Source: a virus | Lineage: Duplodnaviria > Heunggongvirae > Uroviricota > Caudoviricetes | Length of the DNA: 26,360 nt | Virus record (IMG/VR): IMGVR_UViG_2534682078_000020 | Direction: 5' to 3' (one strand) | Shown here: positions 62 to 3,035 of the stretch, one piece after another | Position numbering within the stretch: position 1 is the stretch's first letter | Layout: each line of letters begins with the position of its first letter | The notes under the pieces: generated by a model | What the model was told of the DNA's origin: nothing | What the model saw: only the letters and a program-made list of their open reading frames with translations | Databases searched by the model: none | Position numbers and translations under genes: made by a program

Positions 62-493
62 TCACAGGTGATTCTCCAGACGAAGACCCAGAACACCGGC
101 AATCTCTTCCAGCACCTTGCGCTCTTCCGGCTCAATTTCGCCGTCTGCCTCCGCAATGGCCACCGCCACATCGAGCACATCTTCCGCTTCACGCGTATCG
201 TGTTTCACATCCTCGATCTCACGTAACGCGGCACGACGACCAATTTTAAAATTGGTATCCAGCTGACCGATAATAGTTGCGCTAATCGCATTAATTTCCG
301 AGGTAAACGCAGACAACGCAGGCTGATTACGTAAGACCTGTTCGATCTTCGCTTTCTCGGATGCCTCGCATTCACCATCTGCATAGGCCACCAGGTATGC
401 AGCGTTAATCACCGCCTGTGCCAGATCGCGTTTCTCAAACTTTTTAATTTCCGCTGCCGCTCTGCGGGTTTTCTTTTTGAAGATTCCAAACAT
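62..493 (-). CDS. TerB-domain (tellurite-resistance TerB family) protein; prophage late-region cargo
   Basis: 143-aa ORF with two acidic helix pairs carrying D-G motifs (YLVAYADGECEASEKAKIE and VAIAEADGEIEPEERKVLEEIA), the pattern of TerB-fold proteins; ATG at 491-493 lies inside the IS66 target duplication. Confidence 0.65.
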   Translation of the reverse strand: MFGIFKKKTRRAAAEIKKFEKRDLAQAVINAAYLVAYADGECEASEKAKIEQVLRNQPALSAFTSEINAISATIIGQLDTNFKIGRRAALREIEDVKHDTREAEDVLDVAVAIAEADGEIEPEERKVLEEIAGVLGLRLENHL

Positions 494-495
494 CG
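488..495. repeat. Target-site duplication (left copy) of IS66-family element, AAACATCG
   Basis: 8-bp AAACATCG immediately left of IS end at 496; identical 8-mer at 3028-3035 immediately right of IS end. Confidence 0.85.
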
Positions 496-580
496 GTAAG
501 CGTAAACTGACCGCCGTATGTAGCCATCAGACGAGAATTGGTAACTTAGACGCCCATCTGATATAGACGGACATCTAAGT

Positions 581-1006
581 ATGGAATTACAGGACTGGCG
601 AAAAGAACCTCGTAAAAACTATTCGAATGAATTCAAACTTCGTATGGTGGAACTGGCATCACAACCTGGAGCTTGTGTTGCACAGATTGCACGTGAAAAT
701 GGCGTCAATGATAATGTTATTTTCAAATGGCTCAGGCTCTGGCAGAACGAAGGGCGTGTTTCGCGGCGTCTTCCGGTAACGACCTCTTCTGACACTGGCG
801 TTGAATTATTACCTGTAGAAATAACGCCGGATGAGCAGAAAGAACCTGTGGCGGCCATTGCGCCGTCTTTATCCACTTCCACTCAGACCAGAGTCAGTGC
901 CAGTTCCTGCAAGGTGGAATTCCGTCACGGTAACATGACGCTGGAAAATCCATCGCCAGAGCTGCTCACGGTGTTGATCCGTGAACTGACCGGGAGGGGA
1001 AGATGA
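581..1006 (+). CDS. tnpA: IS66-family accessory protein TnpA (orfA)
   Basis: 141-aa first ORF of the IS66 triplet; stop overlaps the tnpB start (ATGA at 1003-1006). Confidence 0.8.
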   Translation: MELQDWRKEPRKNYSNEFKLRMVELASQPGACVAQIARENGVNDNVIFKWLRLWQNEGRVSRRLPVTTSSDTGVELLPVEITPDEQKEPVAAIAPSLSTSTQTRVSASSCKVEFRHGNMTLENPSPELLTVLIRELTGRGR

Positions 1007-1353
1007 TCTCACTCCCATCAGGTACCCGTATCTGGCTCGTTGCCGGCGTTACCGATATGCGTAAATCCTTCAACGGACTGGGAGAACAGGTACAACATGT
1101 GCTGAATGATAATCCCTTCTCCGGTCACCTGTTTATCTTCCGTGGCCGACGGGGTGACACCGTCAAAATTCTTTGGGCTGATGCTGATGGTCTGTGCCTG
1201 TTCACCAAACGCCTGGAGGAAGGCCAGTTTATCTGGCCTGCGGTACGTGACGGCAAGGTATCCATTACCCGCTCGCAACTGGCAATGCTCCTCGATAAGC
1301 TGGACTGGCGTCAGCCAAAAACATCCAGCCGTAACTCACTGACAATGTTGTAA
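1003..1353 (+). CDS. tnpB: IS66-family TnpB (orfB)
   Basis: 116-aa ORF translationally coupled to orfA; characteristic short middle ORF of IS66 elements. Confidence 0.85.
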   Translation: MISLPSGTRIWLVAGVTDMRKSFNGLGEQVQHVLNDNPFSGHLFIFRGRRGDTVKILWADADGLCLFTKRLEEGQFIWPAVRDGKVSITRSQLAMLLDKLDWRQPKTSSRNSLTML

Positions 1354-1383
1354 AAAACTCCTGACCGCATTATAAAAACGGTC

Positions 1384-2997
1384 ATGAGTCAGAAATACCT
1401 CATTCGCATCGCAGAGCTGGAAAGGTTGCTCTCTGAGCAGGCTGAAGCCCTCCGTCAGAAAGACCAGCAACTGAGTCTGGTTGAAGAGACGGAAGCCTTC
1501 CTGCGCTCTGCACTGACACGTGCCGAAGAAAAGATCGAAGAAGATGAACGGGAAATAGAACATCTGCGGGCTCAGATAGAAAAACTGCGCCGGATGCTGT
1601 TCGGTACCCGTTCTGAAAAACTGCGTCGTGAAGTTGAACTGGCTGAGGCTCTGCTGAAACAACGTGAACAGGACAGCGATCGTTACAGTGGGCGGGAAGA
1701 CGATCCTCAGGTTCCCCGCCAGTTGCGACAGTCGCGCCATCGTCGTCCGTTACCGGCACACCTTCCCCGTGAAATACACCGCCTGGAGCCAGAAGAAAGC
1801 TGTTGCCCGGAGTGTGGCGGTGAGCTGGATTATCTGGGAGAAGTCAGCGCTGAACAGCTGGAACTGGTGAGCAGTGCCCTGAAAGTGATCCGCACAGAAC
1901 GGGTAAAAAAAGCCTGTACAAAATGTGACTGTATTGTTGAAGCACCGGCGCCGTCCCGCCCGATAGAGCGTGGTATCGCGGGCCCCGGATTACTTGCCCG
2001 CGTGTTAACGGGAAAATACTGCGAACATCTGCCACTGTATCGTCAGAGTGAAATCTTTGCCCGCCAGGGTGTCGAACTGAGCCGGGCCTTACTCTCCAAC
2101 TGGGTTGACGCGTGCTGCCAGTTAATGACACCGGTGAATGATGCCCTGTACCGTTATGTGATGAATACCCGCAAGCTTCACACTGACGACACACCGGTAA
2201 AGGTACTGGCACCGGGCCTGAAAAAGACGAAAACAGGGCGCATCTGGACGTATGTCCGGGATGATCGCAATGCGGGTTCGTCATCTCCTCCGGCGGTCTG
2301 GTTCGCGTACTCATCGAACCGGCAGGGGAAACACCCGGAGCAACACCTCCGCCCCTTCCGGGGTATCCTGCAGGCGGATGCGTTCACAGGTTATGACAGG
2401 CTGTTCAGTGCAGAACGTGAAGGTAGTGCGCTGACAGAAGTTGCGTGCTGGGCTCATGCCCGGAGAAAAATCCACGATGTATACATCAGCAGCAAAAGTG
2501 CGACGGCAGAAGAAGCCCTGAAGCGAATCAGTGAACTGTACGCCATCGAGGATGAAATACGGGGATTACCAGAATCAGAGCGTCTTGCAGCCAGGCAGCA
2601 GCGAAGCAAAGCGTTACTGACGTCGCTGCATGAATGGATGGTGGAGAAGAATGGCACGCTGTCGAAAAAATCCAGACTGGGCGAAGCGTTCAGCTATGTA
2701 CTGAATCAGTGGGACGCCCTCTGTTATTACAGTGATGACGGTCTGGCGGAGGTGGACAATAACACAGCGGAAAGAGCGCTTCGTGCAGTCTGTCTCGGAA
2801 AGAAAAATTACGTGTTCTTCGGTAGCGATCACGGCGGCGAGCGTGGAGCACTGCTGTACGGGCTGAGCGGCACCTGCCGTCTGAACGGTATCGATCCGGA
2901 AGCGTATCTGCGCCATATTCTGAGCGTACTGCCGGAATGGCCCTCCAACCGTGTTGACGAACTCCTGCCATGGAACGTAGTACTCACCAATAAATAA
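1384..2997 (+). CDS. tnpC: IS66-family transposase TnpC
   Basis: 537-aa ORF with N-terminal coiled-coil/leucine-zipper region, a CxxC...CxxC zinc-finger (CPECGG...CTKCDC) and a long DDE-type core; ends ~30 bp before the right IR. Confidence 0.9.
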   Translation: MSQKYLIRIAELERLLSEQAEALRQKDQQLSLVEETEAFLRSALTRAEEKIEEDEREIEHLRAQIEKLRRMLFGTRSEKLRREVELAEALLKQREQDSDRYSGREDDPQVPRQLRQSRHRRPLPAHLPREIHRLEPEESCCPECGGELDYLGEVSAEQLELVSSALKVIRTERVKKACTKCDCIVEAPAPSRPIERGIAGPGLLARVLTGKYCEHLPLYRQSEIFARQGVELSRALLSNWVDACCQLMTPVNDALYRYVMNTRKLHTDDTPVKVLAPGLKKTKTGRIWTYVRDDRNAGSSSPPAVWFAYSSNRQGKHPEQHLRPFRGILQADAFTGYDRLFSAEREGSALTEVACWAHARRKIHDVYISSKSATAEEALKRISELYAIEDEIRGLPESERLAARQQRSKALLTSLHEWMVEKNGTLSKKSRLGEAFSYVLNQWDALCYYSDDGLAEVDNNTAERALRAVCLGKKNYVFFGSDHGGERGALLYGLSGTCRLNGIDPEAYLRHILSVLPEWPSNRVDELLPWNVVLTNK

Positions 2998-3027
2998 GCG
3001 TCAATACGGTGCTCCGTTGACGCTTAC

Positions 3028-3035
3028 AAACATCG
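3028..3035. repeat. Target-site duplication (right copy) of IS66-family element, AAACATCG
   Basis: Exact copy of 488-495. Confidence 0.85.

Follow-up and report, generated by a model that had tools for sequence, protein, structure and literature searches.

In the stretch of viral DNA analysed here (the window; 26,360 nt, IMG/VR record IMGVR_UViG_2534682078_000020, Caudoviricetes), a complete insertion sequence (IS) of the IS66 family lies exactly at the start of a gene for a TerB-family protein, in the late region of a lambdoid prophage. It arrived by bona fide transposition with an 8-bp target duplication, and it separates the TerB-like gene from its Shine-Dalgarno sequence. The explanation that we favour as a whole, and that we consider quite probable, is an ancestral IS66 insertion by which this tciA-like gene lost its ribosome-binding site, and through which the late antiterminator Q carries RNA polymerase, the late genes beyond it not being silenced. 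The features that define the insertion are given below by their positions in the window; the element itself was delimited from its ends, its open reading frames (ORFs) and family models.

1-65, minus strand: DUF3927/TciB-like gene (phrog_1470), 5' part, cut by the window edge
62-493, minus strand: TerB-family (TciA-like, phrog_632) moron gene, 143 aa, coding sequence intact
488-495: left copy of the target-site duplication, AAACATCG, including the start codon of the TerB-like gene
496-3027, plus strand: complete IS66-family insertion sequence, 2,532 bp
496-519, plus strand: left terminal inverted repeat, GTAAGCGTAAACTGACCGCCGTAT
581-1006, plus strand: tnpA, IS66 accessory helix-turn-helix protein, 141 aa, intact
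1003-1353, plus strand: tnpB, IS66 Orf2 accessory protein, 116 aa, intact
1384-2997, plus strand: tnpC, IS66 DDE transposase, 537 aa, intact
3001-3033, minus strand: mini-ORF made by the insertion, MFVSVNGAPY-stop, 10 codons, starting at the duplicated ATG and entering the right inverted repeat
3004-3027, plus strand: right terminal inverted repeat
3028-3035: right copy of the target-site duplication, AAACATCG
3041-3046, minus strand: orphaned Shine-Dalgarno sequence (AAGGA/AAGGAA), formerly 5' of the TerB-like ATG

The two octamers directly abut the ends of the element and match exactly, an agreement that would arise by chance at two fixed positions with a probability of about 1.5e-5 (4^-8); a target duplication of 8 bp has been reported for IS66 (PMC6778807). 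For the empty site, positions 1-495 were joined to 3036-3535, leaving a single copy of the octamer, and the product was searched against 5,426 complete Escherichia coli genomes. The joined sequence was uninterrupted in 781 of them; an IS-free copy of the exact prophage allele was not found among these 5,426 genomes, the closest being 99.4% identical. In strain E2865 the empty site reads ...TTCCAAACATCGTGACGTTCCTTTGGG..., with AAACATCG present once, and its minus strand reads AAGGAACGTCACGATG; precise removal of the IS from the window would give back ...CCAAACATCGTGACG.... The original prediction, made from the window sequence, had described an intact duplication whose left copy holds the ATG at 491-493, and both octamers together with the single-copy empty site bear this out. 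It had also reconstructed an IS-free sequence with an AGGA-type Shine-Dalgarno, which is what the minus strand of E2865 contains.

Independent 2,532-bp copies of the element are bounded by other 8-bp duplications, CACCATAT at the locus L003 and TTATTTAC at the locus L005, which indicates normal behaviour of the element and no sequence-specific target. A target-site preference was considered and rejected, as AAACATCG, CACCATAT and TTATTTAC have no common motif. Scanning genome contigs for the left end gave five loci, two of them with both ends and a duplication, while L008 was without a duplication. The copy in L003 (NZ_OW849064.1, 1969-4500) is 98.3% identical, carries the label 'ISEc23 family', has the same orientation as that in the window and is flanked by CACCATAT; it lies in the equivalent interval, from tRNA-Arg to a small ORF/DUF3927, of a different lambdoid prophage. 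The two events, in the window and in L003, are too few for the tRNA-DUF3927 interval to be called a hotspot.

Every defining feature of the IS66 family that can be tested in sequence is present in the element at 496-3027: a DDE transposase TnpC, tnpA and tnpB located 5' of tnpC, inverted repeats beginning with GTAAGCG and the 8-bp duplication. The terminal repeats (496-519 and 3004-3027) are imperfect, with 24 nt and 83% complementarity, and both ends read 5'-GTAAGCG; the stop codon of tnpA overlaps the ATG of tnpB as ATGA (1003-1006). TnpA matched PF01527 (HTH_Tnp_1) and NF047595 (83 bits, cut-off 74), TnpB matched PF05717 and NF033819 (121 bits, cut-off 50), and TnpC matched PF03050 over its full length (E=5e-97) and NF033517 (447 bits, cut-off 180), with the further domains PF13005, PF13007 and PF13817, which are the zinc-finger, leucine-zipper and C-terminal modules of IS66. 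With its inverted repeats, three intact ORFs and family matches, the element is complete, as had been predicted.

Copies with 100% identity, which also occur elsewhere in O111 genomes, are annotated in RefSeq as 'IS66-like element ISEc47 family transposase', and copies with 98.3% identity carry the label 'ISEc23 family'. The exact name, ISEc47 or ISEc23 type, would thus follow the RefSeq/PGAP annotation of identical copies and not the ISfinder references. The ISEc47/ISEc23 elements belong to an enterobacterial IS66 group that includes IS679 and ISEc8, and they have the same tnpA-tnpB-tnpC layout with the ATGA overlap, the same GTAAGCG ends, an 8-bp duplication and a length of 2,532 bp; the element of the window shows no structural difference from them. 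A literature search for ISEc47 returned only an unrelated mention. Directly 5' of the tnpA ATG, on the plus strand, there is a 16-nt inverted repeat (544-580, 81% complementary, 5-nt gap) that may serve the IS for regulation or as an operator. In strain 8234 (O111:H8, NZ_CP077452.1, 2046137-2049981) the same ISEc47 copy is split by IS1203, a nested insertion. Full-length copies of this IS type, 96.5-98.3% identical, were also found in the lambda-like phages 4A7, Lambda_4C10, 1W, 3W and D2 (LR595861.1, LR595864.1/NC_049946.1, OM475428.1, OM475430.1 and OM475427.1), where they adjoin the side tail fibre gene at about 20.8-23.4 kb; lambda-like phages with genomes of about 49 kb thus carry this IS type.

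The insertion exchanged the leader of the TerB-like gene. On the minus strand, the start codon was preceded by AAGGAACGTCACG-ATG before the insertion and by GGTCAGTTTACGCTTACCG-ATG after it; the left end of the IS has taken the place of everything upstream, and the original AAGGA is now 2.5 kb from the TerB-like ATG. In the old leader, AAGGA pairs with the anti-Shine-Dalgarno sequence 7-8 nt from the ATG (-5.6 kcal/mol), whereas in the new leader the one comparable pairing, of GGCGG type, lies about 15-20 nt upstream (-5.5 kcal/mol), and the local hairpin at the start codon is predicted at -9.7 kcal/mol after the insertion as compared with -4.3 kcal/mol before it. Because a well-placed Shine-Dalgarno has been lost, translation of the TerB-like protein is probably lowered, and that of the overlapping DUF3927/TciB-like gene may be lowered as well. 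That the insertion takes away the ribosome-binding site was part of the original prediction and holds, the orphaned AAGGA now preceding the 10-codon mini-ORF. The locus is a textbook case of an IS that strips a gene of its ribosome-binding site with all codons intact, leaving a mini-ORF behind the orphaned Shine-Dalgarno.

The TerB-like ATG is the complement of 491-493 and falls within the left copy of the duplication, so that no codon was lost. The protein matched PF05099 over residues 26-138 (60.2 bits, cut-off 24.4) and phrog_632 ('tellurite resistance', moron category) over positions 1-143 of 143 (E=2e-69). It is identical, with the same start (WP_000466957.1), in strain 11128, which bears the IS, and in E2865, which does not; window position 173, which falls within the gene, is G here and C in 11128, a synonymous difference. 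The other O111 genomes listed agree with positions 1-1000 at an equal 99.9%, and the strain of the window may thus be absent from the complete genomes that were searched. The ORF listing showed no in-frame start upstream within the IS that could give a fusion protein, the ORF beginning at the native ATG. The DUF3927/TciB-like gene starts with a GTG (65-63) that overlaps the TerB stop codon as GTGA (62-65), and it has a GGAG of its own 8 nt upstream. In phage JLK-2012 the homologues, in the same position beside a tRNA gene, are named tciA and tciB. The gene pair of the window matches over their full length the families of tciA/tciB of phage P1 and of the lambdoid 'TerB family' morons (phrog_632, phrog_1470); it differs from those systems in that its first gene is without its native ribosome-binding site. 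For the lambdoid TerB-like homologue, a putative role in tellurite or colicin resistance is an annotation name only. A PADLOC defence assignment for the TerB-like protein was rejected, the match being sub-threshold (E=0.0035).

To place the insertion in time, both junctions were followed through complete genomes. The left junction (window 1-1000) was present in 44 complete genomes at 99.9% identity, and the right junction (2528-3527) in 45 at 99.9-100%, with one further partial copy. All carriers with a named serotype were O111 (H8, NM or H-, and one labelled H2), and their sources, from several countries, include humans, cattle, veal, flies, a crow and creek water. The exonuclease region of the prophage was matched at at least 99% by 49 records only; set against the about 44-46 junction carriers, this means that nearly all carriers of the prophage have the IS. 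Since the junctions are common to about 44-46 genomes, with O111 as the only named serotype, these sequences place the insertion before the diversification of the O111 lineage, as a lineage-wide, inherited event. The original prediction had taken the intact duplication and ORFs as signs of a recent event, which overstated the case; both are compatible with lineage-wide inheritance. The junction is a clean clonal marker of this O111 prophage in nearly all complete genomes that carry it. The insertion is of an ordinary kind, already annotated in RefSeq, and indicates no new mechanism; it has little significance beyond lineage bookkeeping.

What the insertion would do to the genes beyond it depends on the late region, of which the relevant parts are the following.

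1352-1388, minus strand: on the antisense strand of the IS, a terminator-like hairpin (1358-1388, -13.2 kcal/mol) and, after it, U6 (1352-1357)
3171-3190, minus strand: intrinsic-terminator-like hairpin with a T-run at the end of the tRNA cluster, just 5' of the IS in the late direction
3203-3454, minus strand: phage tRNA cluster, in minus-strand order a CAU-anticodon tRNA, then Arg-UCG, then Arg-UCU
4754-5320, minus strand: intact Q-like late antiterminator (DUF1133/Phage_antitermQ, phrog_753)

The window and E. coli O111:H- 11128 (NC_013364.1, from 2,565,651) share 99.95% identity. The order on the minus strand is a RusA-family gene, Q, a T-run hairpin shortly after Q, a 65-aa ORF, an AraC-like gene, the three tRNAs, the IS, the TerB-like gene and DUF3927, and further terminator-like hairpins lie near 4276-4346. 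Past the edge of the window, this strand of 11128 goes on with genes for a SASA esterase, DUF1378, DUF826, holin, lysozyme, an Rz-like protein and a PerC-family protein, and then with terminase, head and tail genes, largely intact with one frameshift. The succession on one strand of Q, a terminator, tRNAs and morons, and then lysis and morphogenesis genes is that of a Q-dependent unit; this is the standard late region of a lambdoid prophage of enterohaemorrhagic E. coli (EHEC), with the IS genes on the strand opposite to that of the late genes. Gene order and strands thus agree with the earlier description of an antisense IS between the tRNAs and the downstream late genes.

The course of events that we propose would begin with an IS66-family element of the ISEc47/ISEc23 type transposing into a lambdoid prophage located at tRNA-Ser beside mtfA, in a bacterium ancestral to the EHEC O111 clone, with clonal inheritance since then. 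Transposition would have duplicated AAACATCG, which spans the ATG of the tciA-like TerB-family moron gene. The TerB-like protein would be translated at a strongly reduced level, the DUF3927/TciB-like gene, with its GTGA overlap, possibly at a reduced level too, and the orphaned Shine-Dalgarno would drive the 10-codon mini-ORF only. Upon induction, Q-modified RNA polymerase would cross the 2.5 kb of antisense IS, and the lysis and morphogenesis genes, with ribosome-binding sites of their own, would escape polar silencing; in the uninduced lysogen, the region would already lie beyond the terminator that closes the tRNA cluster.

The central question is whether late transcripts pass the IS. The original prediction had given polar silencing of the late operon as the likely effect. 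In this alternative reading, Rho or the internal hairpin would end them in the untranslated antisense IS and silence all downstream late genes, namely tciA, the nanS-like esterase, holin, lysozyme, terminase, and the head and tail genes. In ordinary operons, polarity is the classical outcome of an IS insertion, and several properties of this one are of the expected kind: there is a 2.5-kb stretch without a translated frame in the late direction, the minus strand holds the hairpin with U6 at 1352-1388, and C slightly outnumbers G in the antisense RNA (C/G 1.11), with 32 C to 14 G in local windows. The hairpin could halt unmodified RNA polymerase coming from the late-operon side, and an unmodified polymerase is probably stopped within the IS. 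Against a block stands the position of the insertion, which lies within a Q-antiterminated unit whose Q gene is intact. PMC12360218 describes Q proteins as loading at the late promoter and staying on the polymerase, where they confer resistance to pausing and termination; a polymerase loaded with Q passes intrinsic terminators, and Q-lambda suppresses polarity. With an intact Q upstream of the insertion, and with Q as a suppressor of polarity, silencing of the late operon is unlikely. The native late unit already crosses the hairpin at 3171-3190 and the several near 4276-4346, readthrough being its normal mode, each gene that follows the IS is equipped with its own ribosome-binding site, and in 11128 they have stayed largely intact. 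A close precedent is the suppression by lambda Q of IS and nonsense polarity (Forbes and Herskowitz 1982), where the insertion was likewise inside a Q-antiterminated late unit, although the Q of the window is of the DUF1133/Q21-like group and the lambda result is applied to it by analogy. We therefore regard a polar block of the whole operon as unlikely. Some points nevertheless weigh against the explanation that we favour. The Q of the window is distant from the experimentally studied Q proteins, with weak sequence similarity to Q21 structures (E about 1e-3), and suppression by Q of both Rho-dependent and intrinsic termination over 2.5 kb would be an extrapolation; the hairpin with U6 and the stretches richer in C than in G on the antisense strand could produce some polarity. 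The loss of the ribosome-binding site may also be less severe than its displacement suggests, since the pairing energies of the new and old leaders are nearly equal (-5.5 and -5.6 kcal/mol), and there may be residual translation of the TerB-like gene. The locus is a possible natural test of polarity suppression by a Q21-like antiterminator across an antisense IS.

The insertion could also have been activating, if the left end of the IS supplied an outward or hybrid promoter by which the TerB-like gene, released from late-phage control, became constitutively expressed in the lysogen. Several other IS families are known to have outward promoters, and the fixation of the insertion in the lineage of a successful pathogen would be in keeping with a beneficial change. 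An outward promoter in the left end had been named in the original prediction as evidence that would speak against it. A scan of the minus strand over the left 150-250 bp of the IS gave no outward sigma-70-like hexamer pair, even at 7-8 of 12 matches; this negative result is weak evidence, because the scan, of low sensitivity, also misses the IS's own tnpA promoter. Nor did scanning give a promoter from which the TerB-like gene could be read in the interval 3028-3210 (minus strand), which separates the tRNA terminator from the original ATG. A transcript from the left end would still be without a properly spaced Shine-Dalgarno before the TerB-like ATG, and a literature search judged by titles and abstracts brought up, among the matches listed, no report of an outward promoter in an enterobacterial IS66 element, so that we hold an activating insertion to be very improbable. 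The remaining alternative is that the insertion was selected, either because a knock-down of tciA/tciB favoured the O111 ancestor or because an additional lesion locked the prophage in place. Nearly all genomes with the prophage carry the IS, and the insertion in L003 is a second, independent one of the same orientation in the equivalent tRNA-DUF3927 interval. Clonal descent alone accounts for the fixation, however, and two events among about 17,000 IS places in 4,783 genomes are no enrichment; the duplications of independent copies are without a common motif, the coding sequence of the TerB-like gene is free of decay, and there is no known phenotype. Selection of this kind appears highly doubtful to us. 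We see an equally slight chance that what was selected in the EHEC O111 ancestor was the uncoupling of tciA/tciB from translation, or a barrier that the antisense IS sets up between Q and the lysis genes, possibly together with a preference of this IS type for the tRNA-first moron interval of lambdoid late regions. An ancestral insertion that removed the ribosome-binding site and is read through under Q is the explanation that we retain.

Whatever its effect on late transcription, the insertion lies in a prophage with another lesion, in its integration region.

15950-18336, plus strand: N-terminal part of an exonuclease fused to an N-terminally truncated, frame-broken integrase, beside tRNA-Ser and mtfA

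The ORF at 15950-17983 consists of the N-terminal part of the exonuclease and the middle of the integrase, after which the frame breaks, and RefSeq lists both genes as pseudogenes. With the integrase truncated and fused to an exonuclease remnant, the prophage is, as judged from these genes, without a working integrase of its own and excision-defective. A consequence of the insertion for virion release is moot, and the insertion is one of several decay marks, not the decisive lesion. IS insertions are commonplace in EHEC prophages, and many of the IS-bearing 'defective' prophages of O157 are reportedly still inducible, a finding ascribed to Asadulghani et al. in PLoS Pathogens in 2009. In 11128, an IS1203 that is absent from the window interrupts the exonuclease gene of the prophage. 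The insertions of IS629/IS1203 in EHEC O157/O111 prophages are likewise one of several prophage lesions; they differ from the one described here in that they belong to the IS3 family, whereas the IS of the window is of the IS66 family, sits on a start codon and leaves the reading frame unbroken.

Some further observations concern the neighbouring genes. The tRNA at 3379-3454 (minus strand), with its CAU anticodon, is called tRNA-Met by ARAGORN and tRNA-Ile in RefSeq; the latter label is that of the ileZ-type tRNA of the ileZ-argN-argO cluster in Shiga toxin (Stx) phages. Between Q and the tRNAs lies a gene for an AraC-family regulator of 237 aa (phrog_1450, 3483-4196, minus strand), which has its own near-consensus promoter-like site (4259-4232, 10 of 12 matches) and is likely a lysogen-expressed moron regulator of the kind found in EHEC prophages.

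A second island, beside tRNA-Asn (19659-25337), contains, besides an intact tyrosine integrase (19659-20999), a decayed type I cyclic oligonucleotide-based antiphage signalling system (CBASS), whose oligonucleotide cyclase is cut to 190 of ~332 aa (22023-22595) and whose 4TM effector is in two fragments (23021-23293 and 23352-23687), together with an ORF with a Shufflon_N domain (24047-25213, minus strand). Strain 11128 is without this 4.3-kb stretch of the island, and the gap adjoins IS1203. An IS1203 (IS3 family) also forms the end of the window (25338-26360), and it shows 100% identity to those of O111 11128.

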